A stretch of 64,000 bases of DNA from the NCBI GenBank assembly GCA_035705495.1, contig DASSWB010000026.1, positions 13,206 through 77,205 on the forward strand. Direction: 5' to 3'. Position numbers and translations under genes: made by a program. This document shows, in pieces, positions 667 to 22,841 of the stretch (positions within the stretch are counted from its first letter, which is position 1; every line of letters starts with the position of its first letter). Source of the stretch: Salinimicrobium sp. Lineage in GTDB: Bacteria > Bacteroidota > Bacteroidia > Flavobacteriales > Flavobacteriaceae. The notes below the pieces were generated by a model. That model searched no databases, was not told the DNA's origin, and saw only the letters and a list, made by a program, of their open reading frames with translations.

Positions 667-1860
667 ATGAATTTACACGAATTTCAAGGAAAAGAAATAT
701 TAAACAGTTTTGGAGTGCGTATTCAGCGCGGTATTGTAGCTCAAAACCCTAAAGAGGCTGTAGAAGCTGCAAAAAAATTAACCGAGCAAACCGGAACTGG
801 ATGGCATGTTATTAAAGCCCAAGTTCATGCAGGTGGCCGCGGAAAAGGTGGTGGTGTGAAACTTGCCAAAAACCTTCAAGAAGTAGAAGATATTGCTGGA
901 CAAATCATCGGAATGAATTTAGTTACCCCGCAAACCAGTGCTGAAGGTAAAAAAGTTCATCAGGTGTTAATTGCTGAGGATGTATATTATCCCGGTGATA
1001 ACAAACCCGAAGAATATTACATGTCAGTTCTTTTAAACCGCGGTATTGGTAGAAATATGATCATGTATTCTACGGAAGGCGGAATGGATATTGAAACCGT
1101 GGCCGAAGAAACTCCACATTTAATTTTTACCGAAGAAATTGATCCTGCAGTAGGATTACTTCCTTTCCAAGCAAGAAGAATTGCTTTCAATCTTGGTTTA
1201 AGCGGAAACGCATTTAAGGAAATGACAAAATTCGTGACGGCACTTTATAAAGCTTACATGGCTTCTGATGCTTCTCTTTTTGAAATCAATCCGGTTTTGA
1301 AAACAAGTGATGACAAAATCATGGCGGTTGATGCGAAGGTTTCTTTAGATGACAATGCACTTTTTCGCCATAAGGATTATGCGGAAATGAGAGATATTCG
1401 TGAAGAAAGCCCAGTGGAAGTGGAAGCACGTGAAGTTGGTCTTAATTATGTGGATCTTGATGGAAATGTTGGTTGTATGGTGAACGGTGCCGGACTTGCG
1501 ATGGCAACGATGGATTTGATCAAACAAGCCGGTGGGGAACCTGCAAATTTCCTTGATGTTGGAGGAACGGCTGATGCAAAAAGAGTAGAAGAGGCTTTCC
1601 GTTTGATCTTGAAAGATGAAAATGTAAAAGCTATCTTGGTAAATATTTTCGGTGGAATTGTTCGTTGTGACCGAGTGGCCCAAGGAATTGTAGATGCATA
1701 CAAAAATATGGGAGATACTATTAAAGTTCCTATTATTGTACGTCTTCAAGGAACAAACGCCGATATTGCAAAAGAATTGATTGACAACAGCGGATTAGAT
1801 GTTCAGAGCGCTATTGAATTCCAAGAAGCAGCAGATAAAGTGCAAGCTGTACTTGCATAA
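667..1860 (+). CDS. sucC: succinate--CoA ligase (ADP-forming) beta subunit
   Basis: 397 aa. N-terminus MNLHEFQGKEIL, then HAGGRGKGGGVK and GCMVNGAGLAMATMD, the classic SucC ATP-grasp and CoA-ligase motifs. Confidence 0.95.
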   Translation: MNLHEFQGKEILNSFGVRIQRGIVAQNPKEAVEAAKKLTEQTGTGWHVIKAQVHAGGRGKGGGVKLAKNLQEVEDIAGQIIGMNLVTPQTSAEGKKVHQVLIAEDVYYPGDNKPEEYYMSVLLNRGIGRNMIMYSTEGGMDIETVAEETPHLIFTEEIDPAVGLLPFQARRIAFNLGLSGNAFKEMTKFVTALYKAYMASDASLFEINPVLKTSDDKIMAVDAKVSLDDNALFRHKDYAEMRDIREESPVEVEAREVGLNYVDLDGNVGCMVNGAGLAMATMDLIKQAGGEPANFLDVGGTADAKRVEEAFRLILKDENVKAILVNIFGGIVRCDRVAQGIVDAYKNMGDTIKVPIIVRLQGTNADIAKELIDNSGLDVQSAIEFQEAADKVQAVLA

Positions 1861-1881
1861 AAGTAGTAGCCCTCACCCCCG

Positions 1882-1900
1882 CCTCTCCCCAAGGGAGAGG
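1882..1900. terminator. GC-rich hairpin 1 (CCTCTCCC-CAA-GGGAGAGG) in the convergent sucC/cysH spacer
   Basis: Perfect 8-bp stem read directly, 22 nt after the sucC stop. No clean T-tail follows immediately (AGCTAACCAAAATTTTT). Confidence 0.4.
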
Positions 1901-1943
1901 AGCTAACCAAAATTTTTAGTAAATAAAACTATCCTTTAGAGTT

Positions 1944-1962
1944 CCCTTCCCTTCGGGAAGGG
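1944..1962. terminator. GC-rich hairpin 2 (CCCTTCCC-TTC-GGGAAGGG) in the convergent sucC/cysH spacer
   Basis: Perfect 8-bp stem read directly, about 20 nt beyond the cysH stop on the minus strand. Same pyrimidine-arm/purine-arm design as hairpin 1. Confidence 0.4.
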
Positions 1963-1980
1963 TTAGGGATGGGCTCCTTT

Positions 1981-2670
1981 TCACAAATGCAGTCCACATT
2001 CAGTTTTTGGGTTGTTGTTCCATCTGCCATTTCTGTCTTCTCCTGGAACAGTACAATGCGTGCAGCCTATTGAATTATAGCCTTTGGCAACTAACGGATG
2101 AAAGGGAAGATTGTGTTTGGCAATATACGTGTCCCGTTCTTCTTTGCTAACATCCAGCAATGGATAAAACTTTAAAATATTTCCTCTTTTTTCAAAAATA
2201 TCCAGACTGGATCTGTGATCGCTTTGCCAGCTCATTAATCCAGAAACCCAAAGCGTATAATTTTTTTTCAGTAAGTCCAAAGGCTTTACTTTGTTTATGC
2301 TGCAACAGAAATCCGGATTTTTTCTCCAAGTTTCATCTTGGGTCGTAAAATCGTGTTCTTCTTTTATCGCACTCACCGAAATCACCTCCAAATTATATAA
2401 ATCGGTTAATTTTTCCTTGTATTTCAGGGTTTCATCAAAGTGATAACCCGTGTCAATAAAAAAGACTTTCTGGGATTTGTTATGATCTGAAATTAATTTG
2501 AGTAAAAAAGCTGAAGTTGCCGCAAACGAACTTGTCAGCATGATTTCTTCAACATCAAAATCTTTGTAAATTTCTTTTATGCGCTGCGTTACAGTTAACG
2601 AGCGATACTTTTTATTCAATTCAGATATTTCTTCTTCAGAAATAATCCTTTTTTCAAACGCTAAATTCAT
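1981..2670 (-). CDS. cysH: phosphoadenylyl-sulfate / adenylyl-sulfate reductase (thioredoxin-dependent, PAPS-reductase family)
   Basis: 229 aa ending in the family-typical ECGLH(L). A CC pair (FCCSINKVKPL) plus CTHC suggests the Fe-S (APS-reductase-like) subtype. Confidence 0.85.
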   Translation of the reverse strand: MNLAFEKRIISEEEISELNKKYRSLTVTQRIKEIYKDFDVEEIMLTSSFAATSAFLLKLISDHNKSQKVFFIDTGYHFDETLKYKEKLTDLYNLEVISVSAIKEEHDFTTQDETWRKNPDFCCSINKVKPLDLLKKNYTLWVSGLMSWQSDHRSSLDIFEKRGNILKFYPLLDVSKEERDTYIAKHNLPFHPLVAKGYNSIGCTHCTVPGEDRNGRWNNNPKTECGLHL

Positions 2671-2933
2671 TGTTTTTTAGGAAGGGGAGGTTTGTTTTCT
2701 TTTTTGGGCGGCATGGGTCCGCGTAAATGAATAATAAGGCCATTGAGGAAATTCCGCAGTATTTGGTCTCCGCATTCCATATATTTGGGATGATCTTCAC
2801 TTCTAAAAAATGCGCCCAACTCGGCCTTGGTCACTTTAAAATCGACTAAAGCACAAATTTTCACAATATCGTCATCACGTAATTTATGTGCGACCCTTAA
2901 TTTTTTAAAAATATCATTGTTTGATAATGCCAT
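2667..2933 (-). CDS. DUF1456 (YehS-like) single-repeat protein
   Basis: 88 aa. The pattern NDIFKKLRVAHKLRDDDIVKI...ECGDQILRNFLNGLIIHLRG matches my memory of the YehS/DUF1456 repeat. Its stop overlaps the cysH start by 4 nt, suggesting translational coupling. Confidence 0.5.
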   Translation of the reverse strand: MALSNNDIFKKLRVAHKLRDDDIVKICALVDFKVTKAELGAFFRSEDHPKYMECGDQILRNFLNGLIIHLRGPMPPKKENKPPLPKKQ

Positions 2934-2952
2934 GGATTCAATTTTACCTGGA

Positions 2953-5052
2953 TTAATAGAGATCTTTTATTTTTTGTAATTTCTCTTTCCACATTTCGAG
3001 TTGTTCTTTTTGTTTCTCAATATTCTTGTGAACTTCCCGTACCAATGGATTATCAGAATTGGCATTACTGAAAAATTGAAGGTTGTTTTCCAGTTGTCTG
3101 ATTTCTGCCTGGGTTTCTTCTACTTTCTTAGATAAGAAATAATGTTCGTTTTTTAATTTTGAAACATCGTCAGCATCATTTAATATTTGGATTTTGTTGT
3201 CAAATTTCAACATCTCCGCTTCAGATTTTTTCAAATCCAGTTGACCAAATAAATGATCTATCGCTTTGTTGAATTTTCCTTCAATAAATCGCACTTTGTG
3301 ATTCACGTTTCCAATTTCTTTCCAACGTGCAATAAACGATTTTATGATTGCAAGTTTGGCTTCGTGATCTCCAGATAATTCGGTGTTTTTCACCTCATCC
3401 AGAAGTGCTTTTTTCTGTTCAAAAGCTTGTCCTTCTTCTTTGTTTTCTTCATTTCTTTCAGCATGTAATCTGTCAAAGAAATGATTACAAGCTGCTTTGA
3501 ACCTTTTCCAAATTTTGTCGCTGTCTTTTCTGGGAACATGGCCAATTTTCTTCCAATCGTCCTGAATTTTTTTCATGACCGCAACGGTGGCCTTCATGTC
3601 TTCATTGTCCTTGTTCTCTTCAGCAATTTTCACCAGTTCCAACTTCTTCTCTAAATTGTCGAACTGCTCTTTCTTGAGATTTTTGTAATAAGCATTTTTA
3701 TTTCTGTTGAATTGCCTCACCGTTTTTTTGAAGTCGGTCCAGATTTCATCTGTGGCTTCTCTTGGTACTTTTCCCGCGTTAAAAAACTCGGTTCTTAAAG
3801 CTTCTACATTTTTTATTTGTTGCTGTAACTGCTGATGTGATTGTCCTTGAATGTCAACAACTTCATTGAGTTTCTGAATAATTTCTTTCTTTTTCTCTAG
3901 GTTTTTTTCACGTTCCTGATCGAGTTGTTTGAAATATTCTTGGCGTTTATCGTGGATTTTTTTTGTCGCTTCACTGAAACGCTCCCAAAGTTCATCCCGA
4001 TACTCTTTCGCAACTGGACCCAAATCTTCCTTCCACATTTTGTGCAGCATTTGAAGCTCCCGGAACGCTCTATTGGTATCTTCCTCTTGCGCCAATTCGT
4101 CAGCGCGGTCTATTATTTTTAATTTTTGCTCAAGATTATGTTTGAAGTCCAAATCCCTGAACTCTCTGTTCAAGTGAAGAAAATCATAAAAATTCTCAAC
4201 ATGATGGTGGTAATTGTTCCAAACATTATTGTATTTATCACGCGGAATTGCTCCTGCTGCCTTCCAGCGCTCCTGAAGTTCTTTAAAGTGTTTGTAGGTT
4301 GTATTGATGTTTTCCTCAACATCTATCAAACCTTTCAATTCCTCAATGATCTGCAATCGTTTTTTTAGATTTTCTTCAAGGTTCTGTTTGAGGTTTTGAT
4401 AGTATTTATTCCTTTTCTCCTTGTAATCAAAATATACATCGCTGTATCTTTTTTTCAGGGGAGTGGAATAATGGAAATCGATAATGTTTCCTCCTTCAGC
4501 AAGAAATTCTTCTTTTTTCTCTTCAAAATCTTCCTCAAACTTGTTGTTGAATTCCGTTTTTATTTCTTCAACATGATCGCGAATTGCCTGAATTTTATAA
4601 TTTTTCACCAGATGCTCCAATTCATTTACAAGTTGTTCCTGAGTCATTTTTTCATACTCTTTCACAGGAATTCCGTGTTTTTCATTGGTGGTTTCATCTT
4701 CACTTTCTTCCGCAACCGCATCGTCCATTTCACCTTGTGCATCTTTTTTCTTGGTAGATGCATCCTCTTTCCCTTCAGTGTTGGCAGCGACAAGAGTCTC
4801 TTCGGTTCGGATTTCTGATTTTTCAGCTGATGCTTCAGATTCTTCAACCATGGCATCTTCTATACTGTTCTGTTTTTTTTCGTCCGAATTTTCTGTGGCT
4901 TGTTCCTGAAGTTGATCGTTCGTGGTTTCCTCTTCCAAAGGTTTCTCCACAATATTTTCTGCAGGTTGGTTCCCTGCATTTATTTTTTCTTCGGAATTGA
5001 TTTGATCAGGAGAAAGTTGCTTTGGTTGCTCTTTTTCGGACATTTTTTTCAA
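2953..5052 (-). CDS. DUF349 repeat protein with acidic N-terminal region
   Basis: 699 aa with at least 5 repeats of the W-x-x-x-G-x-(V/I)P-x(5-6)-(I/L)W-x-(R/D/N)F pattern (ERWKAAGAIPRDKYNNVWNNY, DDWKKIGHVPRKDSDKIWKRF, etc.). Confidence 0.8.
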   Translation of the reverse strand: MKKMSEKEQPKQLSPDQINSEEKINAGNQPAENIVEKPLEEETTNDQLQEQATENSDEKKQNSIEDAMVEESEASAEKSEIRTEETLVAANTEGKEDASTKKKDAQGEMDDAVAEESEDETTNEKHGIPVKEYEKMTQEQLVNELEHLVKNYKIQAIRDHVEEIKTEFNNKFEEDFEEKKEEFLAEGGNIIDFHYSTPLKKRYSDVYFDYKEKRNKYYQNLKQNLEENLKKRLQIIEELKGLIDVEENINTTYKHFKELQERWKAAGAIPRDKYNNVWNNYHHHVENFYDFLHLNREFRDLDFKHNLEQKLKIIDRADELAQEEDTNRAFRELQMLHKMWKEDLGPVAKEYRDELWERFSEATKKIHDKRQEYFKQLDQEREKNLEKKKEIIQKLNEVVDIQGQSHQQLQQQIKNVEALRTEFFNAGKVPREATDEIWTDFKKTVRQFNRNKNAYYKNLKKEQFDNLEKKLELVKIAEENKDNEDMKATVAVMKKIQDDWKKIGHVPRKDSDKIWKRFKAACNHFFDRLHAERNEENKEEGQAFEQKKALLDEVKNTELSGDHEAKLAIIKSFIARWKEIGNVNHKVRFIEGKFNKAIDHLFGQLDLKKSEAEMLKFDNKIQILNDADDVSKLKNEHYFLSKKVEETQAEIRQLENNLQFFSNANSDNPLVREVHKNIEKQKEQLEMWKEKLQKIKDLY

Positions 5053-7896: not shown

Positions 7897-9294
7897 CTAT
7901 GATTGCTGCTTATATGCGGAGATAATTTTTTGGATAGGTTCTTGGTCAAATACGCTGGGGAAAAGTTCTTCGATAATGATATAGTATTCAACATCAATTT
8001 TCAATGCATTTTTCAAATGGAAAAAACCTTTCTCGTTTTGCTCCAAATAAAAGAAAAGCCCTGCCAATCGATATTCTATTTCTGCGGTTTCAGGATAAAA
8101 TTCATAGGCATGAAACAGGTTTTGAATTGCTGTTTCAAATTCCCCTAGGTTGATGAGGATATCGCAACGTTTAATCCATGTTTCGAGTTCGTAGTTACCC
8201 AGATCCAAGCTTTTTTTGTAGCCTTTTTCAGCCTCTTTTAGGAAATACAGTTTATTGTTGATTTTCGCATAACGCTTCCAATACAAAACATTGTCTTCAT
8301 CAATACTAATTGCTTTATTGATGTAAAAAAGTGCCTTTTGATAATCCATTTTTTTGTAATAAAAATCGGTTATCGCAATCCATCCTTTATCCAGTAAGGG
8401 ATCTTCATGCACGGTTTTGCTGTAATTTTCCAAAGCGAGATCGTGCAAACCCAATTTTTCATAACATTTACCTATTCGGAGGTAAGCGAAAGAAGTGGGG
8501 TCATCCAATTCCAAAGTGATGTTGTAATTTTCAATCGCTTCATTATAACGCTTCAGTTTTTCGAGAACTTTCCCTTTTTCAAGGTAGGCTCCAAGAAAGT
8601 ACTCGTCGCTTATAATGGCAAAATCAAAAGATCTTAAAGCTTTTTCATATTGTTTTAAATCGAAATATTGTTTGCCTAGTTGATGCCAAGCTACTTCACA
8701 ATATGGGTTTTTGTCCAGAAATTCGTTTAGGAAATCGATTGCTTCGCCAGATTGTTCTAAAAAATCAAAACAATACATGATGTTGTAAAGCGCAGAATAA
8801 TCTTCTTCATCTGCTTCCAAACATTTTATAAAGTTGTTTTTGGCATTTTCATAATCTTCCAGAAACAAAAATTCCATGCCCATCAATGAGTAAACATCGG
8901 CCTCATCTACAGTCATTTCCAAAGCCAACTTAAGCATTTTTATTGCTTCTTTGTGCTTGTCTTTTTTAGAGAGAATGTTCGCTTTTTGTATATAAATTTC
9001 TTCGTTTGAGGATTCTAACTGATATAATTCGCCCAAAATTCCATCCGCCAAATCCAGTTTGTTTTCAAAAACAAGGATTTCGACCTTAAGTAATTTTAGA
9101 TTTGTTGAGGAGGGATGCTGTGCCAAACCCAATTTGACAGCTTTTTTTGCAAGTGCTATTTTTCCATTTTCCAAATAATGATGTACAATATTTTCAAATT
9201 CTTCAGAATCGAAAAATAATACATCATTTGTTTTTAGCATGGATTCGAAACGGACAAGGGAGAAATTATTTTCTTCGTTATGGCTTAATTGCAT
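7897..9294 (-). CDS. tetratricopeptide-repeat protein
   Basis: 465 aa, all-helical, with a recurring 34-aa A/Y/L TPR-like periodicity (e.g. AWHQLGKQYFDLKQYEKALRSFDFAI). Confidence 0.75.
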   Translation of the reverse strand: MQLSHNEENNFSLVRFESMLKTNDVLFFDSEEFENIVHHYLENGKIALAKKAVKLGLAQHPSSTNLKLLKVEILVFENKLDLADGILGELYQLESSNEEIYIQKANILSKKDKHKEAIKMLKLALEMTVDEADVYSLMGMEFLFLEDYENAKNNFIKCLEADEEDYSALYNIMYCFDFLEQSGEAIDFLNEFLDKNPYCEVAWHQLGKQYFDLKQYEKALRSFDFAIISDEYFLGAYLEKGKVLEKLKRYNEAIENYNITLELDDPTSFAYLRIGKCYEKLGLHDLALENYSKTVHEDPLLDKGWIAITDFYYKKMDYQKALFYINKAISIDEDNVLYWKRYAKINNKLYFLKEAEKGYKKSLDLGNYELETWIKRCDILINLGEFETAIQNLFHAYEFYPETAEIEYRLAGLFFYLEQNEKGFFHLKNALKIDVEYYIIIEELFPSVFDQEPIQKIISAYKQQS

Positions 9295-9395
9295 ACGTAA
9301 GGAGTTGCTGATTTCTACAGTATTAAATTTATAAATGATAACGCATGCGTCGGGTGAATATTTGAATTGTTGTTAACAAAGTAATCAACAAATTT

Positions 9396-10586
9396 TCATT
9401 TTGAATGCATGAGCTCATCCAGAACATCAATAATAATACCACATCCCTCCAAAATCTCTTCTTCGGAAATTGTTAGCGGTGGCGTTATTCGAATGGCACG
9501 TTGTTCAAAAAGTAACCAAAAGAGAATCAAGCCTTTATCTTTACATTTTAAAATCACTTCGTTTGTAATTTCTGCGGATGGTAAAATGGCAGCCAACATT
9601 AATCCGCTTCCCCTGATTTCTGAAATGAGCGGATGTTTCAAATTTTCCCGAAACAGTTTTTCCTTCCTTAATGTTTCGGGAATTAAATCCGTGGAAATAA
9701 GCTCCTTCAAAGTAGCAAGAGCAGCTGCGGCAATCACCGGATTTCCGCCAAAAGTAGTAATATGCCCCATTTTCGGATTATAAGACAAAGTATCCATCAC
9801 GGCGGAAGAAGCTGTAAAAGCTCCAATTGGAAGTCCGCCGCCCATTCCTTTTCCCATGACAACAATATCTGGCACGACACCAAAATTTTCAAAACCAAAA
9901 AGTTTGCCTGTCCGTCCAAACCCTGGCTGTATTTCGTCTAAAATCAGCAGTGCGCCGACTTCCTCACAACATTTTTTTACTTTTTGCAAATAATTATTTT
10001 TCGGCAAAATAAATCCCGCGCCTCCTTGGATTGTTTCCAGTATGACAGCCGCAGTTTTTTCGGTGATTTTTGAAATTTCGGCGACATTATTAAATTCCAG
10101 GAAATCGATATCACCAATTAGAGGTCTGAACGGTTTTTGGCGTTCTTCAAAATTCATCAAACTCAACGATCCCATCGTATTTCCGTGGTAGGCATTTTTT
10201 GCAGCAAATATTTCGGTTCTCCCCGTAAATCTTCGAGCTAATTTCAACGCACCTTCTATTGCTTCGGTTCCCGAATTCGTCAAATAAGTTTTCTCCAACG
10301 GGTCTGGAAGGTTTTCGGACAATAATTTACTGAGATCAACGGCAGGTTGTTGCGCGTACTCTCCGTAAACCATTACATGCATATATTTGTCAAGCTGATT
10401 TTTTACCGCGTTTAAAACATTGGGATTTCCATGACCCACACTAACGGCCGAAACTCCGGCAACAAAATCCAAATGTTTTTTTCCGTCTGAAGTATAAATA
10501 TAAGATCCACGTGCATGAGAAACTTCCAACCCGAGCGGAAATAGGGAAGTCTGTGCTTGGTATTTTAAAAAGTCCTTGCCTAACAT
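9396..10586 (-). CDS. class-III (aspartate aminotransferase family) PLP-dependent aminotransferase
   Basis: 396 aa. LTNSGTEAIEGALKLAR, ILDEIQPGFGRTGK and MGKGMGGG (PLP lysine region) motifs. Confidence 0.85.
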   Translation of the reverse strand: MLGKDFLKYQAQTSLFPLGLEVSHARGSYIYTSDGKKHLDFVAGVSAVSVGHGNPNVLNAVKNQLDKYMHVMVYGEYAQQPAVDLSKLLSENLPDPLEKTYLTNSGTEAIEGALKLARRFTGRTEIFAAKNAYHGNTMGSLSLMNFEERQKPFRPLIGDIDFLEFNNVAEISKITEKTAAVILETIQGGAGFILPKNNYLQKVKKCCEEVGALLILDEIQPGFGRTGKLFGFENFGVVPDIVVMGKGMGGGLPIGAFTASSAVMDTLSYNPKMGHITTFGGNPVIAAAALATLKELISTDLIPETLRKEKLFRENLKHPLISEIRGSGLMLAAILPSAEITNEVILKCKDKGLILFWLLFEQRAIRITPPLTISEEEILEGCGIIIDVLDELMHSK

Positions 10587-14270: not shown

Positions 14271-16478
14271 TTATTCACGGGTTACCTTATCTATACCGTT
14301 GATTTTTTTAAGGTGTTCCATAAGGGTTTTTAATATGGAATTGTTTTTGACAATGACCGTTATTTTCCCTGTAAAAATGCCGTCGGAACTTTCAAAATTT
14401 ATTTTTCGGATATTCACGTTCATGTTGTTCGAAATTTCCCGAGTCACTTCATTCACCAAACCAATGTTGTCAATACCGGTCAAACTGATCACCGATTTAA
14501 ATTCTTCTTGAGACGAATCGATCCATTTTGCGGAAATGATCCGGTACGCAAAATTACTCTGGAGTTGAATCGCGTTTGGGCAATCCTTTTTATGAACTTT
14601 AATGCCTTCGCTAACGGTCAAAAATCCGAAGACACTGTCGCCAGGAATTGGATTGCAACAATTGGCAAGTTTGTAATCAAATTTTTCTTCTTCTTTTCCA
14701 AAAACAAGCTGATCATAATTTGCCGTTACCTCATCCTTATCAATATCCTCAGCAACATGAGGTTTTCTGATCTTGTTTTTGATGAAACTCATTAAAGCGT
14801 TGCTTCGGGAAGCAGCAAATTCTTTTAATTTGGTATTTTCAATACGACCTATCCCGACTCGATAGAATAAATCCAGACTTGTTTTCAGTTTGAAAAAAAT
14901 GACAAGATCGTTCACCGTCTTTTCATTGAACGGAATTTTCTGTGCCTTCAGTTTTCGCCGAAGAATTGCTTTTCCTTCTTCCGCAATTTCCTTTTTCTCG
15001 TCTTTAAGAGACGATTTAATTTTGGCCCTCGCCCTTGCTGTTGTAGCGTAATCCAACCAGTTGGCCGTAGGTTTGCTTTTTTCCGAAGTAATAATATCGA
15101 CTTGGTCACCGCTCTTTAGCTCGTGACTTAAAGGAACCAGTTTTCCGTTAACGCGGGCACCTCTTGTGTGTAAACCGATTTCTGTATGAATGCTGAAAGC
15201 AAAATCCAGTGGTGTAGCACCTTTGGGCAAGGATTTTAAATCCCCTTGCGGTGTGAAAACGAAGATTTCCTTGGAATATAAATTCAGTTTAAACTGCTCT
15301 ACAAAATCGACCGCATTGATTTCTGATCCTTCCAATACTTCTTGAAGTTTGTTGAGCCATTCTTCAAGTCCTTTTTCCTCTTGAACCGAGCCTTGTTTGT
15401 ATTTATAATGTGCAGCGTAACCTTTCTCCGCTATTTCGTTCATTCTATCACTCCGGATTTGCACTTCCACCCATCTTCCTTTTGGTCCCATTACGGTAAT
15501 ATGAAGCGCTTCGTAGCCTGTGGATTTAGGGGAAGAAATCCAGTCTCTTAATCGCGTTGGATTGGGTCGAAAATGATCCGTTACGATTGAATATATTTTC
15601 CAAGCGATAAATTTTTCATTCGATGCATCCGTATTGTAAATGATTCTTACGGCAAATTTATCATAGACTTCATCAAAACTTACATTCTGATTTTTCATTT
15701 TCCGCCGTATCGAATAAATAGATTTTGGTCTTCCTTTTATATCGTAAGTTAAATCCTCTTTATCCAAAGAATCTTTGATCACCTTGGTAAATTCCTTTAT
15801 ATAAAGATCTTGTTCCTCTTTACTTTCTTTGATTTTCGTGAAAATTTCGTTGTAAACTTCGGGCTCGGTATATTTTAACCCAAGATCTTCAAGGTCTGTT
15901 TTTATATTGTACAACCCGATACGGTGTGCCAAAGGAGCATAAATATATAAGGTTTCAGAGGCAATTTTTTCCTGTTTGTCCGGTTGCATGGAATCCATTG
16001 TTTGCATGTTGTGCAACCGATCTGCGATTTTTATGATAATTACACGAACGTCATCATTCAACGTAAGTAACATTTTACGGAAGTTTTCGGCTTGAAGTGA
16101 AACGTCTTTATCGTGCTTGAGATGCGAAATTTTTGTGAGTCCGTCAACAATATGGGCGATGGTTTCGCCGAATAATTCCCGAAGATTTTCAAGCGTGTAA
16201 GAAGTATCTTCAACAACATCATGTAACAGGGCAGCAGCGATACAAGTTGCATCCAGACCAATTTCCGATGCGACAATTTTCGCAACGGCGATTGGATGGA
16301 AAATATAAGCTTCGCCCGATTTACGCCGCTGGCCGTTATGTGCATCAACGGCGGTATCAAAAGCCAAACGAATCAATTTTTTATCTTCTGCGGAAAGCGT
16401 TTGATAACTAATTCGAAGCAATTCTTTGTACTGCCTTGCGATCTCTTTATTTTCTTGCTCTAATGCTGCTTCTGTCAT
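14271..16478 (-). CDS. bifunctional (p)ppGpp synthetase/hydrolase, RelA/SpoT homologue
   Basis: 735 aa. HD hydrolase motif (LLHDVVEDT), synthetase domain (YEALHITV), TGS and ACT-like C-terminus. Confidence 0.95.
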   Translation of the reverse strand: MTEAALEQENKEIARQYKELLRISYQTLSAEDKKLIRLAFDTAVDAHNGQRRKSGEAYIFHPIAVAKIVASEIGLDATCIAAALLHDVVEDTSYTLENLRELFGETIAHIVDGLTKISHLKHDKDVSLQAENFRKMLLTLNDDVRVIIIKIADRLHNMQTMDSMQPDKQEKIASETLYIYAPLAHRIGLYNIKTDLEDLGLKYTEPEVYNEIFTKIKESKEEQDLYIKEFTKVIKDSLDKEDLTYDIKGRPKSIYSIRRKMKNQNVSFDEVYDKFAVRIIYNTDASNEKFIAWKIYSIVTDHFRPNPTRLRDWISSPKSTGYEALHITVMGPKGRWVEVQIRSDRMNEIAEKGYAAHYKYKQGSVQEEKGLEEWLNKLQEVLEGSEINAVDFVEQFKLNLYSKEIFVFTPQGDLKSLPKGATPLDFAFSIHTEIGLHTRGARVNGKLVPLSHELKSGDQVDIITSEKSKPTANWLDYATTARARAKIKSSLKDEKKEIAEEGKAILRRKLKAQKIPFNEKTVNDLVIFFKLKTSLDLFYRVGIGRIENTKLKEFAASRSNALMSFIKNKIRKPHVAEDIDKDEVTANYDQLVFGKEEEKFDYKLANCCNPIPGDSVFGFLTVSEGIKVHKKDCPNAIQLQSNFAYRIISAKWIDSSQEEFKSVISLTGIDNIGLVNEVTREISNNMNVNIRKINFESSDGIFTGKITVIVKNNSILKTLMEHLKKINGIDKVTRE

Positions 16479-16526
16479 GAAATAAAAATAGTATTTCCAA
16501 TCTTATAAAGCAACAAGAATTATACT

Positions 16527-16592
16527 TCAAGATTTTTTTATTCTTTGAAAAAGTGTTGAGGTTAATATTTCAAAATAAAAAAAGTTACGGTG
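16527..16592 (-). repeat. left island boundary: degenerate duplicate of the last ~21 codons of the M48 protease gene
   Basis: The minus-strand reading gives HRNFFYFEILTSTLFQRIKKS*. This aligns without gaps to the M48 C-terminus HPAYVFIHYSHPTLFQRIKNL. The 20-nt core TTTTTTATTCTTTGAAAAAG (16534-16553) is identical to 21622-21641. Confidence 0.6.
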
Positions 16593-16675
16593 TTAAAAAT
16601 GCTAAAGTTTTATTAAACTGAGCTTCCGCTGAAGTTAAATTTTTAACTTTTTTTTGGAATTTTTAAAATAGACCC

Positions 16676-18422
16676 ATGAAACCCATTAAATTTCTGATTG
16701 CGCTTACCACAATTTCGCTCCTGATTAGTTGCGAATATGAAGAGGATGTTGAAACAAATATGAGTGGAGTATCTTTGGAAGAATACAGCGTTACCAATAT
16801 GAATGGAAAACAGATCCAGATGAATGCTGCACTTGTAGAAAAGTTGAGGTTGTTTAGGAATACACCTATGTTAACTGGAAAAATTGGTGATACAATCTCG
16901 GTTTCCATTGATACTACATTTGCAAAATATGTTGAAAGTAAAGATGGATTATATCATTCCTATACTTTTTCGTCATTAAATGATAGATATAAGAATATTT
17001 TGTTTTCCCAAAAAAGAGATGGTACGTATGGAACTTTTTTAGTAGAATATAATTTAACTCCAGAACAGAAAAAGTCGCTCTTGTTAGGTGAGGAAATTTT
17101 TTTTACTAATGAAGTAAAAACCACTGCTATAGAATTTACCGGTGGAAATCTCGAGATGGCAGTGAAAATGAGCGCCTGTATCGACGTTGCTTGGACATTC
17201 ACACCAGGAGAACCTTGCGTTGCCGGATTTTATTTTGGTGATCCCCGTTGTACACATACTTCAGGACCTGATGCGCCAACACCTGGGCAAATGGTAATGA
17301 CAGTTACAAACAACTGGTGGCGGTGGAAGCGTCAATTTTGGCTCATTACCTAACTCAAATCCTCCAAGCGGAGGGGGTATTTATACAGACATTAATTCCA
17401 CCTTTAATCCAGTTACCACCTACACCATGCCACCCGCCGTAAGCAGAAGGAAAATTTTCTTCATGAATTTAAATCCAGATCAGTTGGCATGTTTCAATAA
17501 TACCACAACCACAGGTTCTGGGTTGACTCCTCAAGATTCACTTCAAGTGATGAATTTTTTGGAGAACAGTTTGTTGGAAAATGGTTTGATTGCAGATTCT
17601 TCTATTTATCCTGGTGATGCCTCGGGTTTTGCTGCGGAAGCTATTACGACTATTTGTGAGGATGGTGAAGTGGATTGGGAGGAGCAGGTGATTCTAGATG
17701 ATTCTTTTACTCAAAACGACTGCCTGTATGGAATTTACCAGCAAATGGGTGAGGCGCCAATATTCAACGGCTACTTACAAAGTTTTGATAGTGATGGTTC
17801 TGTGGCAGATTTGAAGTTTAAAGCTGATAGCAACTTTGCGACAAATAGGGAAACAAAATATCATAATGCTATGGCAATAACGGATCCTCCATTGAATTCC
17901 GTTTTAATTAATATTACTTTTAACACTGATGTAACCACTACAGGAAATATTCTAGATAAACCTGATGTTTTCAAAGCTGTATCGCTTATACACGAGATTT
18001 TACATGCTGAAATGTATAGAAAAATGTTGGATGCAGTGAGAGCCGCTGAAATAAGCGGAAATAGTTTAGATTGGGCCAATTGGACCAGCGAGGAGTTTTA
18101 TAACGATTTTTTGGATAGTTTAGAAAATAAATATTTTGGAATATTTGATTACTTTACAAGGTATAAATATGGCATACCTGTTGGGAGTAACCCTAACGAT
18201 TACCAACACCAACAGCTGGCAGAACATTATCGGGACATAGTAAAGCAAGCATTAACAGAATATGATCCTAATCTCACAGAGGCACAAAAAGAAGCACTTT
18301 CGTGGATTGGTTTAAATAGCGCAGATATTGTGGCTTGGCAAAATTTAACACCAATAGACCAACAAATAATAAACAACAACATAGAAAACATGAAAAACAA
18401 CTTAGAAAATGGATGCAATTAA
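16676..18422 (+). pseudogene. lipoprotein with C-terminal HExxH (zincin-like) module, split by a frameshift within 17301-17353
   Basis: ORF 16676..17353 has a lipobox (LLISC). Its frame ends in junk-like NNWWRWKRQFWLIT*. The frame of ORF 17427..18422 is open from 17301 and reads as a G/S/P/N linker (TTGGGGSVNFGSLPNSNPPSGGGIYTD...) before the tracked Met. LIHEILHAEMY contains the HExxH. Confidence 0.55.
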
Positions 18423-18855
18423 AAAAACTGCTTTTGTCGCTTTGTTTATCCCTTGGCTGATCTTTTCACAGAAAGAAAACGGAACATTGTATCCAAAAGA
18501 TACGATTTATATCCAATATGTACACACACAACAAAATAATGATTGGAATGCAAAATTTAAAAGAAACTATCGAGGAGAATTTGGGATTTTCTTCAATATC
18601 GAAAGTAGTAGTGGAGACATAGCACTATTTTATTCTTTTAAGAAAAAAGCAGATACTTTATGTATAGAGTACTTGAACAATTTTCATTTATCCAGCTTGG
18701 AAGAGATTAATGAAAAGAGGAACGAATGGATTTTTAACAACAAACGGCCTCCTGCAGATAGAAACGGAGTCTTTCAAACTTATGTTGTCGAAATAATCTC
18801 GAACAATAAATTTGTAAAATATCCTGTGATATGGCGAAATGAGGGAAAGTATTGA
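18409..18855 (+). CDS. small exported protein P1 (immunity/inhibitor-like, uncharacterised)
   Basis: 148 aa. Signal peptide MDAIKKTAFVALFIPWLIFSQ. The start overlaps the HExxH gene stop by 14 nt. Shares the beta-rich pattern of P2-P5 (DTIYIQY ... TYVVEII ... YPVIWRNEG). Confidence 0.6.
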   Translation: MDAIKKTAFVALFIPWLIFSQKENGTLYPKDTIYIQYVHTQQNNDWNAKFKRNYRGEFGIFFNIESSSGDIALFYSFKKKADTLCIEYLNNFHLSSLEEINEKRNEWIFNNKRPPADRNGVFQTYVVEIISNNKFVKYPVIWRNEGKY

Positions 18856-18903
18856 TTACTGATTGGTCTCATTCTTTTTGCTGTCAATAGCTTCTCCTTA
18901 ACT

Positions 18904-19167
18904 ACCTATCAACAACAATTGGCAGATTTTATTTATAATAACCATGAATGGAATAGTGAAAATTCAAATTTCGTCAGTCAAATGCAATTATATTTTGGTG
19001 TAAATTGGAAAGAAAAAACTGCGGAGGCTTGTAGTTGGATAGGTCTTACAGAAACAGATCAATATTACGATTTTGTAAATGGATTATCTGCGGCTGAAGC
19101 ATTAGGTTTCGATCAAATATCCAGACAAAAAATGTTCATTAATGATGCCAATTCAAATTGTAATTAG
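18904..19167 (+). pseudogene. orphan 3' fragment paralogous to the last ~85 codons of the HExxH lipoprotein gene
   Basis: TYQQQLADF...CSWIGLTETD...NDANSNCN* parallels DYQHQQLAEHY...LSWIGLNSAD...NLENGCN* of the full-length gene. It has no HExxH and no ATG (the tracked start is TTG at 18919). Confidence 0.6.
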
Positions 19168-19168
19168 T

Positions 19169-19678
19169 ATGAAAAATCTTTATATATTTTTCTTAATAAG
19201 TTTTGGTCTCAATTTTTCTCAAAATAATATTGGTCCAGTAGATAAGAAAGGATATGATTTGTATATCGTTTATGAAGAATTAGATAAAATTTTCACAAAA
19301 CCTATAGACACTACAGATGAAAATTTACACTATAGTGTTTATACCTTAAGAATCCCTAACCAAAATAATCCAAGGTTTGTATTTAATTTTAAAGATAAGG
19401 ATAGTCTAGAGTTGGGCTATACCCTAAAGGGAGGCAATGGTACGGACTTTGATTTTAATTTTTCTCACAATAGTAAAGAACATGAAAAGTTTTATATTGA
19501 AAAAAATAAACACTTAGAGAATCAAATATCTATAAATCATATTTTGGCTTCTAATCTTAAAGTATTCGAGAGAGTATTAGAAAAGGCTAATATAATATAT
19601 ATATTGGAGGTAGTTGATGAAGAAAGTTTCGAATACATAGCAAGAGAAGTGAGTTATTCAAAGGATATTAAGCTATGA
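19169..19678 (+). CDS. small exported protein P2 (uncharacterised)
   Basis: 169 aa from ATG 19169 (MKNLYIFFLISFGLNFSQ signal peptide). It starts 1 nt after the orphan fragment's stop, mirroring the toxin/P1 junction. The tracked ORF 19142 start is probably spurious. Confidence 0.6.
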   Translation: MKNLYIFFLISFGLNFSQNNIGPVDKKGYDLYIVYEELDKIFTKPIDTTDENLHYSVYTLRIPNQNNPRFVFNFKDKDSLELGYTLKGGNGTDFDFNFSHNSKEHEKFYIEKNKHLENQISINHILASNLKVFERVLEKANIIYILEVVDEESFEYIAREVSYSKDIKL

Positions 19679-19741
19679 TTTATTAAGGGCACAAGAAAGA
19701 ATATTATACCAACTGATTTATCATTTGATAATAGGTGATAG
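19679..19741 (+). repeat. remnant of a P5-type gene 3' end (FIKGTRKNIIPTDLSFDNR*)
   Basis: Near-identical at the DNA level to 21350-21410, which encodes the P5 C-terminus (YEGTRKNIIPTDLSFDNKG*). Confidence 0.6.
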
Positions 19742-20267
19742 CCGCTCAATTCTAATTGATTCACGTATAAAAAATCTGATATTTATTATTGCGTTCTTGT
19801 TTTCTATAAATGTTTTTTCTCAAGAAAAGCAGAATGTGTATCAGGATATTTATATCATGACAAATTACTTTACTCAGGATTTTTTGGGATATAAAGCCTA
19901 TTTTGATATTAAAAGTACAGATTTAAGATTCACGCATGACACTTATTTTTTCAGGATAGACTTTCCGGATATTGATTATAGTAGCCTCTATAGTTTGGGA
20001 AAACCTGTGAATATAGATTCGATAGAGGTGATGGAGCCTAAGCAGTTTTTTTACAATAAATCAAATAATTTTATTCACACAGAACTAAGTCTTTGGGAAA
20101 AAGAAAACAACACACGAATTTTTATCGTTGCTGAAATTCCTTCAAGTCGATTAAGAAGACAGGCGGATAAATCAAAAAAGCACATGATTTGGGACGTGGA
20201 CTATGTTGGGACGATGAAAGAATTCTATCAAATGCTGATGACAAAAGGTTTGTTATCGGGAGATTGA
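19725..20267 (+). CDS. small exported protein P3 (uncharacterised); start codon uncertain
   Basis: Signal peptide IKNLIFIIAFLFSINVFSQ. The position homologous to the P2 ATG is ATA here. The only tracked start is TTG 19725, inside the remnant above. Resembles P5 (IHTELSLWEK/IHNELSLIKE; VDYVGT/LIYEGT). Confidence 0.5.
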   Translation: MIIGDSRSILIDSRIKNLIFIIAFLFSINVFSQEKQNVYQDIYIMTNYFTQDFLGYKAYFDIKSTDLRFTHDTYFFRIDFPDIDYSSLYSLGKPVNIDSIEVMEPKQFFYNKSNNFIHTELSLWEKENNTRIFIVAEIPSSRLRRQADKSKKHMIWDVDYVGTMKEFYQMLMTKGLLSGD

Positions 20268-20295
20268 AAAATATCCCCAGAAGATTTGAATAAAA

Positions 20296-20418
20296 ATGAA
20301 AAACGTATATTTTCTGTTAATCGTAATATTGCTGTCTTGTGAAGTTGTTTCACAACAAACCAGATTAAGTATTTTGGATATTATAGAAGCTTTTCACGAT
20401 AATAACCCAGACTGTTAA
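20296..20418 (+). CDS. 40-aa mini-ORF with a lipoprotein-type signal (MKNVYFLLIVILLSCEVVSQQ...), possibly a truncated cassette
   Basis: Read by hand; it falls below the ORF-track length cut-off. The stop lies 2 nt before the P4 ATG. Confidence 0.3.
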   Translation: MKNVYFLLIVILLSCEVVSQQTRLSILDIIEAFHDNNPDC

Positions 20419-20420
20419 TT

Positions 20421-20876
20421 ATGAAATACAAATTGTACATATTATTTTTCATGTTTTGTTTACAAAAAGGCTTAGCTCAAAAAAAACCGCAGCTTTGTAT
20501 ATGCTTTACTGAAAAAACAAAATATATTGAAGTCAATACCAGTGAAGATTCCACAAAAACCAGTTTTACAATTGTTAGAGGAGGATTTGAAACGAAAGAA
20601 AAAAGAAAAAAAAATTTAGAAAATTATCAAGCGGGGCCTCCTTCGGCATCGGGGCAACCCAGTTTTACTATTAATTACTATACGTCAAAAAGACCAGAAA
20701 GAATTGATTTGATAAACTCCAATGATGAGTGCGAATTCTTCATTACATTAGATCAGTTCCGTCAAAAAGAATTTGGCTTTCCAAAGGGAATAGGAGGCTC
20801 TCAAGTAATTTTTTTGAAAAAACTCCCTGATGGCTCATTTTTAAAATGGAATCCTATACTAATGGCACGCGAATAA
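20421..20876 (+). CDS. small exported protein P4 (uncharacterised)
   Basis: 151 aa. Signal peptide MKYKLYILFFMFCLQKGLAQ. Late motif SQVIFLKKLPDGSFLKWNPILMARE, as in the other P proteins. Confidence 0.55.
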   Translation: MKYKLYILFFMFCLQKGLAQKKPQLCICFTEKTKYIEVNTSEDSTKTSFTIVRGGFETKEKRKKNLENYQAGPPSASGQPSFTINYYTSKRPERIDLINSNDECEFFITLDQFRQKEFGFPKGIGGSQVIFLKKLPDGSFLKWNPILMARE

Positions 20877-20945
20877 AACTGATTAATCTTTTGAATGTAA
20901 GGATAAATTCAACATTAGTTTTAATGATAAAGAAAGTAGGTTATT

Positions 20946-21410
20946 ATGAAACGGTTAATTCTTATTGCTTTATTAATTTTCAGCTTTCAATATGCTGTTT
21001 CCCAGAATGATACTATTTATCTAATGGTAGAAGATGTTTCCATTCAATCAAGAATAGGACAAGAATTATCTTGGGGGTTTTTGGTTAAAAGCCATGATGA
21101 TCGTTTCATTTGTGATTATTACAAATTTCAAATTCCAAATTGGATGGGCATTGATGAGAAAGGAGAAGATATTTTTTTTAACGCTGATCAGTTAAAAAAA
21201 GGAATTGATTTGGATTCCATTCATTTCGAAACCATTTCGTCTTTTATTCTTAATAAAAAACCTTGGGAGATACATAATGAATTAAGTTTGATAAAGGAAA
21301 TATTTATTATTGGACGACAAAATGGCAATTATTATTTCTTGCCATTAATTTATGAGGGCACACGAAAAAATATTATACCAACTGATTTATCCTTTGATAA
21401 TAAAGGATAG
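20946..21410 (+). CDS. small exported protein P5 (uncharacterised)
   Basis: 154 aa. Signal peptide MKRLILIALLIFSFQYAVSQ. Then DTIYLMVE ... KEIFIIGRQNGNYYFLPLIYEGT. Confidence 0.6.
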   Translation: MKRLILIALLIFSFQYAVSQNDTIYLMVEDVSIQSRIGQELSWGFLVKSHDDRFICDYYKFQIPNWMGIDEKGEDIFFNADQLKKGIDLDSIHFETISSFILNKKPWEIHNELSLIKEIFIIGRQNGNYYFLPLIYEGTRKNIIPTDLSFDNKG

Positions 21411-21439
21411 TGCCAGTTGTAATTGATTCACGTCTTAAA

Positions 21440-21527
21440 AAGAATCTTTATATATTCATTTTTAACACATTTTGGTATCAATTTTTCTCAGAATAACAAT
21501 GATCCCATAGATAAGAAGGGATATGAT
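21440..21527 (+). pseudogene. decayed 5' fragment of a P2-type gene (no ATG, indel, stops)
   Basis: By-eye alignment shows roughly 85% identity to 19172-19258 (AATCTTTATATATT...TTTTGGT.TCAATTTTTCTCA.AATAA...TAGATAAGAA.GGATATGAT). Confidence 0.6.
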
Positions 21528-21540
21528 GATTATAATGAAT

Positions 21541-21571
21541 AAAAAAGCCGCAGAATTGCGGCATTTTTTTT
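21541..21571. terminator. bidirectional intrinsic terminator (GCCGCA-GAAT-TGCGGC, A6 before, T8 after)
   Basis: Read directly. It closes the plus-strand island array and sits about 40 nt beyond the minus-strand M48 stop. Confidence 0.7.
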
Positions 21572-21608
21572 GAATTTGAAAATCCACAACTTCCTCGAAA
21601 CCCTAAAC

Positions 21609-22841
21609 TTAATTTTCCAAATTTTTTATTCTTTGAAAAAGAGTGGGATGTGAATAATGTATAAAAACATAAGCGGGATGCGGCGTTAAATTACTTAAAC
21701 TGTTCTTGGATAATTTTTTAAGACCAGAAATCAATGCTTCAGATTCAAAAGTATTTTTAGCATATTCGTCTGCTTGATATTCGAATTTTCTAGAGATTAA
21801 ATTCATTATTATTCCTGTTACCTCGGAAATCGGTCCGTATAAAATACCGAAAGCAATCAAGCCGACATGAAAACTTGGTTGTTCAACTCCCAAAGCATTT
21901 GAAAGCAACGGATTGTTTATGAAAAGCGAAAGCAACCACAACGTAAATCCGGTGATCAAGATGGAAATAATCAAATTGAAAATAATGTGCTTCTTTTTAT
22001 AATGACCGACTTCATGCGCCAAAACGGCAACGATTTCGGGTTCATCCAAGTCATTGATCAAGGTGTCGTACAGTGTGATTCGCTTTTCTTTTCCAAAACC
22101 AGAAAAATAGGCGTTCGCTTTTGTGCTTCTTTTTGAACCATCAATTACGAAAATATTGTCCAGTGTAAAACCGACTTTTTGCGCATAAGTTTCGATTTGA
22201 TCTCTTAAAGAACCTTCACCTAAAGGTGTTTGTTTGTTGAAAATCGGCACAATCAATTTTGCATAAAACATATTGACGAAAACCGAAAAAATCGCCACCA
22301 ATCCCCAAGTGTAAAGCCAGAAATTATCGTCGGTGATTTGGTAGAACCAAATGATAAGTGACAAGATCCCGCCGCCCACGATAATCATCATTGCCCAAGA
22401 TTTGAGCTTGTCTAAAAAGAAAGTCTTTTTTGTGGTTTTATTGAAACCGTATTTTTCTTCAATCACAAAAGTGTTGTAGTAAGAAAACGGAAGACTTATG
22501 ATGTCACTTGCGAGCATTATAATTCCGAAGAAAATCAAACCAATTACAATTTCATTATCTGAAATGGAACGTGCAATTTCATCCACAAAATCAAATCCGT
22601 CGAGGAAGAGAAAAAGCAATGTTACAATGATTGAAAATGTAGAAGAAATAATTCCGAAGCTGTATTTTTCCTTTTTATAACGCATTGATTTCTCGTATTC
22701 TTCAGCGTTGTAAATATCTTGCAACGGTTCAGGAATCGGATCGTTAAAATGTTTGGCGTTCAGGAAATCGAGAATTTTTTCAATTAAAAAATCCAATAAT
22801 ATAATTCCGATGATAATGTAGAAAAGTGTGATTGAAGACAT
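21609..22841 (-). CDS. M48 family (Ste24/HtpX-like) integral-membrane zinc metalloprotease
   Basis: 410 aa. Multi-TM N-terminus and VLAHEVGHYKKKH (HExxH). The last 21 codons are duplicated at 16527-16592. Confidence 0.85.
   Translation of the reverse strand: MSSITLFYIIIGIILLDFLIEKILDFLNAKHFNDPIPEPLQDIYNAEEYEKSMRYKKEKYSFGIISSTFSIIVTLLFLFLDGFDFVDEIARSISDNEIVIGLIFFGIIMLASDIISLPFSYYNTFVIEEKYGFNKTTKKTFFLDKLKSWAMMIIVGGGILSLIIWFYQITDDNFWLYTWGLVAIFSVFVNMFYAKLIVPIFNKQTPLGEGSLRDQIETYAQKVGFTLDNIFVIDGSKRSTKANAYFSGFGKEKRITLYDTLINDLDEPEIVAVLAHEVGHYKKKHIIFNLIISILITGFTLWLLSLFINNPLLSNALGVEQPSFHVGLIAFGILYGPISEVTGIIMNLISRKFEYQADEYAKNTFESEALISGLKKLSKNSLSNLTPHPAYVFIHYSHPTLFQRIKNLEN

Follow-up and report, generated by a model that had tools for sequence, protein, structure and literature searches.

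A 64,000-nucleotide stretch of a Salinimicrobium sp. metagenome-assembled genome (Flavobacteriaceae), hereafter the window, holds a gene for a lipoprotein with a C-terminal HExxH domain, followed on the plus strand by five small genes whose predicted products, P1 to P5, carry export signals (locus tags VFM70_02975 to 03015). With a probability of about 70%, we read this locus as an island of polymorphic toxin and immunity genes from marine Flavobacteriaceae, in which one gene for an exported immunity protein is cognate and four are orphans. It is most likely a system of a known kind whose protein families have no entry in Pfam, NCBIfam and PDB. A preliminary description made from the letters of the sequence had proposed an immunity cluster here, and that proposal is supported by subtype-specific linkage of toxin and small gene, by toxin relics, by tandem arrays and by swapped C-terminal domains. 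Literature searches returned no description of this toxin-immunity family.

Subtype-specific pairing of putative toxins and small proteins

The HExxH proteins fall into at least four subtypes, A to D, that are mutually homologous, with the HExxH motif and a third His invariant (loci from other genomes carry our own numbers, L001 and so on). The subtype of the window, type A, is followed by a P1 homologue in all ten genome loci that include downstream sequence, out of 12 loci fetched, and also in L018. The P1 start codon lies inside the last codons of the toxin gene: a 14-nt overlap, identical in nine loci including the window, reads NGCN and a stop in the toxin frame and MDAIK in the P1 frame. 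Type B is a distant relative, 24% identical to the window domain (E 3e-7); P5-like genes stand behind type B toxins in L001/L002, L017 and L026 and behind a type B relic in L025. P2-like genes stand behind a type C toxin or a fragment of it in L020, L021 and L027, the type C open reading frame (ORF) of L020 being 181 aa long, beginning at HEVIH and ending ANSNCN. Type D is represented in L024 by an intact lipoprotein of 593 aa that is 37.5% identical to the window domain and ends NPNCQ, and the product of the gene directly behind it is 40% identical to P4 over 146 aa (E 1e-36). P2, P4 and P5 align over their full length with their homologues beside intact toxins, at 40-47% identity end to end. 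A survey of homologues for linkage to HExxH proteins had been suggested as a check on the immunity proposal; this linkage is recurrent, and specific for the subtype.

Several side observations concern the same pairing. At least 13 metagenome homologues of the HExxH protein and of P1 have identical longest contig sizes (e.g. 10466, 9034, 49373, 5193 and 3305), which suggests that they lie on the same contigs and gives circumstantial support to the linkage. Further small signal-peptide proteins are encoded behind toxin 3' fragments at L021 656-1394, L027 3-473, L022 4574-5014 and L023 3646-4095, where the fragments end NDICE, NNINCQ and THNCPN; one of these small proteins is P1-like, at only 26% identity to P1. 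Clearly, more toxin subtypes and partner families exist than the four seen in the window. A conserved signal-peptide protein of 216-219 aa is encoded behind the P5-like gene in two loci (entries L003 791-1441, L017 4239-4898 and L025 684-932), and in L025 the signal peptide of this protein is joined to the 3' relic of a type B toxin. It may represent another immunity-like family or be part of another module.

Toxin relics and recombination scars in the window

The preliminary description had placed five plus-strand ORFs of 148-180 aa in this part of the window, in agreement with the ORF list. Together with the toxin gene, the relics and a terminator, they are laid out as follows (basis in brackets).

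16676-17353, plus strand: 5' part of the type A toxin gene, with lipoprotein signal, acidic stretch and variable N-terminal domain (ORF list, frame inspection)
17313-18422, plus strand: 3' part of the type A toxin gene, with Gly-rich linker and HExxH domain of about 250 aa (tblastn to intact homologue)
18409-18855, plus strand: P1, 148 aa, predicted immunity protein, exported and cognate to the type A toxin (linkage, AlphaFold model)
18874-19167, plus strand: 3' relic of a type C HExxH toxin, 97 codons, ending ANSNCN (tblastn, L020_181)
19169-19678, plus strand: P2, 169 aa, orphan immunity-like gene, type C partner (homologues in L020, L021, L027)
19672-19741, plus strand: P5-type 3'-end relic fused right behind the P2 stop codon (DNA identity, junction alignment)
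19725-20267, plus strand: P3, 180 aa, TTG start, member of the P5 family with a P2-type 5' end (BLASTP, hhalign, junction alignment)
20296-20418, plus strand: 40-codon stub, lipoprotein-like signal running into the final codons of a type D toxin (alignment to L024)
20421-20876, plus strand: P4, 151 aa, orphan immunity-like gene, type D partner (homologue in L024)
20946-21410, plus strand: P5, 154 aa, orphan immunity-like gene, type B partner (homologues in L001/L002, L017, L026, L025)
21411-21542, plus strand: type C toxin 3'-end relic (ASCN and a stop) with a cut-off P2-like 5' end, 39 codons (DNA identity, alignment)
21547-21562, no strand assigned: hairpin like an intrinsic terminator, bidirectional, closing the array and common to the convergent M48 peptidase gene (terminator scan)

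The DNA between the small genes, previously taken as intergenic, holds relics of other toxin subtypes. The 97-codon relic is 60% identical to the C-terminus of the type C protein of L020 (tblastn E 2e-36, aligned window part 18874-19164), and an 82-aa ORF between P1 and P2 (18919-19167), which sits inside it, is for this reason regarded as a 3' relic of the toxin cognate to P2. The 40-codon stub joins a signal LLS/C (the slash marks predicted cleavage) to EAFHDNNPDC and a stop. In L024, the type D toxin ends EDFNEQNPNCQ and a stop, and the P4 homologue starts next; the 3' part of the stub and its transition into P4 align with this region, and we read the stub as a deletion relic of the type D toxin cognate to P4. 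The five genes, which had been described as the array of the enzyme that they adjoin, divide into P1, its partner, and P2 to P5, which are orphans of three other subtypes.

Other junctions join sequences of P2 and P5 type. The 3' tail of P5, GTRKNIIPTDLSFDN, recurs directly behind the P2 stop codon (19672-19741), where the relic reads FIKGTRKNIIPTDLSFDNR followed by a stop and has 83% DNA identity to the P5 3' end at 21341-21410. In P3, which has the 5' end of a P2-type gene, the codon equivalent to the ATG of P2 is ATA (19767-19769), so that P3 may start at the TTG at 19725 or may be impaired. Behind P5, positions 21411-21542 have about 80% DNA identity to 19149-19265. Judged by their sequence, the junctions at P3 and P5 are the traces expected from recombination among cassettes.

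Polymorphic-toxin features in other genomes

Three marks of polymorphic toxins were found: a common N-terminal module combined with unrelated C-terminal domains (the lipoprotein pair of L008 and the four HExxH subtypes), a specific small gene directly behind each toxin type (A-P1, B-P5, C-P2, D-P4), and orphan cassettes that consist of a toxin 3' end and an immunity gene. The two lipoproteins of L008 are alike over their first ~245 aa (31% identity, E 1e-17), one ending in the HExxH domain and the other in Pfam domain DUF6973, and both have their own small exported gene behind them. Lipoproteins with the same kind of N-terminus and a DUF6973 C-terminus occur at L008 3847-5735, L009 6880-8075 and L022 1255-3563, each followed by a small lipoprotein of 115-117 aa, which probably makes them a second toxin-immunity pair of the same delivery family. 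DUF6973 was not found mentioned in the literature searched.

Arrays of partner genes take several forms. In Salegentibacter echinorum, P1 is present as five tandem copies with 61-84% identity; in L024 the type D toxin and its P4-like gene are followed by two orphan P1 copies; and the array of Mesonia sediminis (L023) is mixed, combining P1 and a divergent P1-like gene with a P5-like gene and 3' fragments of toxins. The design of a stub plus a small gene is repeated elsewhere, with a P5-like gene behind a type B relic in L025 and a P2-like gene behind a type C relic in L021 and L027; orphan cassettes are also present in L022 and L023, those of the window being 18874-19167 with P2 and 20296-20418 with P4. 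Toxin genes split into at least two ORFs, with breaks at differing positions and an intact P1, were found in the window and at L018 4282-6014, L007 7152-8837, L011 7118-8717 and L006 7425-8681. The pattern resembles one in which the toxin was lost repeatedly and the immunity gene kept. As a side observation, L018, which is Flavobacterium sp. CS20 (CP073015.1), has IS110-family transposase genes and a reverse transcriptase of a group II intron on the flanks of the locus (1169-4224, 9281-10543), which fits a mobile or rearranging region.

Orphan P genes that adjoin decayed toxin fragments, arrays that mix partners of several subtypes with no matching intact enzyme in the stretch examined, five diverged P1 copies in one genome, repeated loss of the enzyme gene with its partner kept, and the same N-terminal module on an unrelated C-terminal domain that has a small partner gene of its own are all difficult to reconcile with the best of the alternatives. 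This holds that the HExxH protein is a housekeeping protease, used for feeding or host interaction, and that the P proteins are periplasmic inhibitors that protect the producer while the enzyme is in transit, with no conflict between bacteria. It would account for the tight gene coupling with its 14-nt overlap, for the export of the partner proteins, for a catalytic-looking domain that is conserved at 50-70% identity across genera and for the lack of secretion or killing machinery nearby. The logic is that of Inh/AprI, small Sec-exported proteins that neutralise a HExxH enzyme of the same cell. Inh is an eight-stranded beta-barrel. P1 to P5 did not match Inh/AprI in Pfam at E-values up to 1, no Inh structure was among the Foldseek PDB matches of P1 and P5, and the models of these two are alpha/beta, with five strands, two to three helices and a hairpin, rather than an all-beta barrel. 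The Inh/AprI precedent invoked in the preliminary description therefore stands as a functional analogy and fails as a relationship of family or fold, and we consider the protease-inhibitor explanation unlikely.

Export signals and families of the P proteins

All five P proteins begin with a basic n-region and a hydrophobic core, followed by a small residue at -1 and Gln at +1. The predicted cleavage sites are FS/Q in P1, P2 and P3, LA/Q in P4 and VS/Q in P5, and none of the five has a lipobox. The Sec-type signal peptides ending in SQ or AQ that had been reported are thus present, as cleavage before Gln in five out of five. Gln at +1 is the Bacteroidetes Q-rule for substrates of signal peptidase I (PMC5837995), and at this predicted position it is at least 90% conserved within the P1 family.

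Database relatives exist for P1 (74), P5 (20), P2 (eight cluster representatives) and P4 (one clear relative), and the five ORFs are genuine, conserved genes and not chance ORFs. Single-linkage BLAST of 207 small ORFs gave four families: P1 (96), P3 and P5 together (29), P2 (12) and P4 (2). P3 and P5 had already been singled out as the clearest relatives; they are the sole pair linked in all-against-all BLASTP, with 30% identity over 119 aa (E 9e-6), and P3 matches the P5-family profile with an hhalign probability of 94%. Profile-profile comparison of mature regions across families gave no significant result, the best being P1 with P5 (P=0.002, probability 14-18%), and P2 and P4 had no profile signal toward the other P families. 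Model-derived secondary structure or enlarged families in hhalign did not unite them either. Of the suggested five divergent paralogues, the relation of P3 to P5 is retained, whereas by sequence the set as a whole comprises four separate families. Two higher-scoring matches were discarded: a P1-P5 probability of 81% with full-length sequences in hhalign is a signal-peptide artefact, and a P5-like match inside P2 (tblastn E 7e-4) was rejected as evidence of homology because its score comes mostly from the P5-type tail fused behind the P2 stop.

The preliminary description could put no family name to P1-P5, and they indeed have no Pfam match at E-values up to 1, known immunity families (Pfam Imm families, SUKH) included, and no NCBIfam or PADLOC match. 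Scans of all seven proteins and of family members against these three libraries gave nothing above noise. A role in anti-phage defence was dropped given the toxin-immunity architecture and the absence of PADLOC matches. UniRef names two Salegentibacter copies of P1 'GLPGLI family protein'; this identity was rejected, since none of 40 P1 family members matches the NCBIfam GLPGLI model (presumably TIGR01200) at E-values up to 1. The JGI names 'CcmE' and 'histidine kinase' on P1 homologues were taken as spurious as well (the entries misnamed by UniRef or JGI are P0103, P0141, P0113 and P0126). No relatives of P4 were found in viral contigs or plasmids, and a metagenome scan for P2 yielded one short contig, without upstream context.

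AlphaFold models of the mature proteins reached a predicted local distance difference test (pLDDT) score of 87.6 and a predicted template modelling (pTM) score of 0.82 for P1 (69 sequences), and 88.0 and 0.78 for P5 (20 sequences). The two models are alike in the order of their secondary-structure elements, by which the likeness was judged without superposition: five beta strands, two to three helices and a long beta hairpin. The early strand (DTIYIQY, TIYLM) and late strand pair that had been picked out by eye correspond to beta1 and the beta6-beta7 hairpin in these models. Foldseek returned no PDB match at E <= 0.001 for either model and none among viral structures for P1. The weak best matches are of the same kinds for both, sortases and kinase N-lobes with a template modelling (TM) score of at most 0.33, and we read this likeness merely as that of a five-stranded sheet plus helix. 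Plausibly, P1 and P5 share one fold that lacks a solved representative; unrelated folds with known functions, the outcome that would have spoken against the immunity proposal, were not what the models gave.

Confident models with the same element order for P1 and P5, and the full-length agreement of P2, P4 and P5 with homologues beside intact toxins, also make it quite improbable that P2 to P5 are functionless decaying remnants and that their five-way similarity reflects chance and signal-peptide composition, even if the locus is full of relics, P3 is without a canonical start codon, P4 has a single relative and the cross-family profile scores are not significant. The idea that the P proteins assist the lipoprotein in export or assembly, as chaperones or adaptors, rather than inhibit it agrees with the strict subtype-specific pairing and translational coupling, but it is the least probable of the three, as a helper is useless without its client, yet P genes are kept and multiplied where intact toxin genes are missing, and as four unrelated families for one homologous client domain fit an arms race better.

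The putative lipoprotein toxin and its HExxH domain

The HExxH protein has 55 database homologues, all from marine Flavobacteriaceae or metagenome contigs, among them Mesonia, Psychroflexus, Polaribacter and Tenacibaculum, with Gillisia and Salegentibacter added by a genome scan. Full-length members are 500-577 aa long, so that a typical toxin has about 550 aa, and consist, in this order, of a lipoprotein signal (typically LLWN/C), acidic residues after the Cys, a variable N-terminal domain, a Gly-rich linker and the domain of ~250 aa, which is 50-70% identical across genera. In 32 members of the toxin family a lipobox is followed by acidic residues, D or E taking up on average 2.5 of the five positions behind the Cys (for instance CEKEE or CENEE). 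The window protein has LLIS/C followed by EYEED. A lipobox Cys followed by a polar residue and acidic residues is the Bacteroidetes lipoprotein export signal, which directs sorting to the surface (PMC5080379); since the acidic stretch resembles this signal and the sequence carries the motif, the toxin is presumably exposed at the surface.

Invariant across subtypes A-D and L016_262 are the H, E and H of HExxH, a His ~70 residues downstream and a SW.GL motif, and the H-E-H...H arrangement is the pattern that a metal-dependent hydrolase would be expected to conserve. In the window, HEILH is at 17991-18005, the third His at 18207-18209, and the conserved domain ends NGCN. Type A has a conserved Cys pair, which suggests folding outside the cytoplasm. 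In combination with the acidic residues resembling an export signal and with exported soluble partners, this pair would place the action of the toxin domain in the cell envelope.

The N-terminal domain of the window toxin resembles that of an intact 582-aa toxin of Salegentibacter (phmmer E 3.9e-6). Its gene is split by a frameshift just 5' of the Gly-rich linker, with the break at 17290-17320. The HExxH reading frame is open from ~17303, the ORF with HEILH spans 17427-18422, and the intact homologue L008_573 aligns unbroken over 17313-18419 (tblastn E 7e-110). As the toxin gene is frameshifted, P1 is possibly a widowed cognate immunity gene. One relative of the HExxH protein had a sub-threshold match to the SprT-like family of Pfam (E 0.0026). 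Neither toxin half and none of P1-P5 matched a C-terminal sorting domain of the type IX secretion system (T9SS) in NCBIfam at E-values up to 1, models of the Por_Secre_tail type being, as we assume, part of that library.

Genomic setting

The locus is a plus-strand block of 4.9 kb, bordered by two minus-strand genes, relA/spoT (14271-16478) and an M48 peptidase gene (21609-22841), and ordinary housekeeping genes flank it on both sides. The G+C content is 29.9% in the small-gene array (18409-21545), 37.3% in the toxin gene and 36-38% in the flanks, which makes the immunity array compositionally distinct even from the adjoining toxin gene. In a scan of 16400-21700, the hairpin at 21547-21562 was the sole strong terminator-like site downstream of the toxin gene. 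The whole window contains no match to the Bacteroidetes-type promoter pattern, which renders that scan uninformative, and a sigma-70 scan of the locus gave matches at chance level.

Points that weigh against a toxin-immunity island

A number of points count against the reading as a toxin-immunity island. Toxicity, metal-dependent hydrolysis, action in the periplasm, direct binding of immunity protein to toxin and the route of delivery are properties that we infer from sequence, and the signal peptides of P1-P5 were assigned by eye, without SignalP. Inspection of the neighbouring genes revealed no delivery or secretion machinery near the locus, a type VI secretion system (T6SS) included. The frameshift in the window toxin could be an assembly error. 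A C-terminal domain that is conserved across genera behind a variable N-terminus is the reverse of classical contact-dependent inhibition (CDI) and Rhs toxins. The HExxH domain has no Pfam or NCBIfam match, and a PDB sequence search with two profiles gave no significant result, the best profile match being to the HExxH helix of Spartan/SprT at a non-significant E of 0.14. Lastly, the pairing of type D with P4 is represented by a single intact locus and the relic in the window.

Comparison with known systems

Classical polymorphic toxins (CDI, Rhs, MafB; Zhang et al. 2012, PMC3482391) resemble the present system in several respects: the toxin is modular, combining an N-terminus for trafficking with C-terminal domains that can be exchanged, the immunity gene lies directly downstream of it, and there are arrays of cut 3' ends with immunity genes as well as junction scars. 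In architecture, these loci with their orphan cassettes, BcpT/BcpI and SitA/SitI come nearest to the locus described here. Immunity proteins that are secreted, lie in the membrane or are lipoproteins form the exception in that survey of classical toxins (PMC3482391), and the signal peptides of the P proteins set them apart from most of the immunity proteins it covers. The N-terminus also differs, as it combines a lipoprotein signal with a family-specific domain in place of filamentous haemagglutinin or RHS repeats or a marker of the T6SS or the type VII secretion system (T7SS). Unlike in classical polymorphic toxins, the HExxH domain is better conserved across genera than the N-terminal domain and matches none of the Pfam models scanned, among which we take the Tox-MPTase families to be included.

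The C-terminal zinc-metallopeptidase effector of VgrG2b from Pseudomonas aeruginosa acts in the periplasm and has PA0261 as its cognate immunity protein (PMC6899460). As a periplasmic zincin toxin with an exported immunity protein, this is the closest functional precedent; VgrG2b is delivered in the T6SS spike, whereas the toxin described here is a lipoprotein without T6SS context. No sequence or Pfam relationship between VgrG2b and the window toxin was detected.

BcpT of Phocaeicola vulgatus and the BSAP toxins of gut Bacteroidales are themselves lipoproteins. The reports on BcpT/BcpI (PMC9308784) and the BSAPs (PMC12853789), antibacterial proteins of Bacteroidota, refer to the lipoprotein export signal. 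BcpI is a small lipoprotein thought to reside in the outer membrane, unlike the P proteins, while BcpT binds the lipid A-core and is without a HExxH domain (PMC9308784), and the BSAPs are pore formers, unlike the present toxin. No orphan immunity arrays were noted in the passages on BcpT that were consulted. There is no sequence relationship between BcpT or the BSAPs and this toxin.

SitA toxins of myxobacteria have N-termini with a lipobox. They are mainly nucleases that act in the cytoplasm, with cytoplasmic immunity proteins, and their delivery needs TraA/B-mediated outer membrane exchange, which to our knowledge is not known in Flavobacteriaceae. SitA/SitI are polymorphic outer-membrane-exchange toxins with adjacent immunity genes (PMC5562445), and are thus like the present system in being a polymorphic toxin family delivered between cells and accompanied by neighbouring immunity genes. 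The acquired interbacterial defence (AID) clusters of Bacteroidales are mobile orphan immunity arrays against T6SS effectors (bioRxiv 10.1101/471110). They are similar in that immunity genes are kept without matching toxins as protection against neighbours, and different in that the array of the window adjoins a (broken) toxin gene, with no integrase seen at the window locus. AID clusters are associated with a recombinase.

Proposed mechanism and significance

On the toxin-immunity reading, the variable N-terminal domain of the lipoprotein would serve in targeting or delivery and the C-terminal zincin-like HExxH domain would be the effector. Each subtype is encoded directly upstream of its own P family (A with P1, B with P5/P3, C with P2, D with P4), and the P proteins would bind and block the matching toxin domain in the periplasm, which would shield the cell from its own toxin and from those of its neighbours. 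Orphan P genes would protect against toxins made by neighbours, P2 to P5 having been left behind by recombination and deletion of former toxin-immunity modules. That the toxin might enter a neighbouring cell through vesicles, or by receptor-mediated uptake through its N-terminal domain, is speculation.

A more specific version, to which we give somewhat less than even odds, is that of a bacteriocin-like weapon: a lipoprotein, carried on the surface or on vesicles, that selects its target with the variable N-terminal domain, attacks the envelope from the periplasm with a new zincin-like domain and is delivered without any of the known contact-dependent secretion systems. Its immunity proteins P1, P2, P4 and P5 would then have a new alpha/beta fold that diversified beyond sequence recognition in step with subtypes A to D.

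For annotation, ~150 'hypothetical proteins' could gain a label and the misleading GLPGLI name could be removed. What is known of interbacterial toxins in Bacteroidota comes mainly from gut Bacteroidales, and much less from the Flavobacteriaceae that dominate communities on marine particles and in algal blooms. The locus adds a toxin domain and four families of immunity proteins, none of them named in curated libraries. Export of the immunity proteins suggests a target in the envelope, and the lipoprotein architecture suggests a delivery route other than T6SS or CDI. The pairing rules are clear enough for direct testing in culturable strains.

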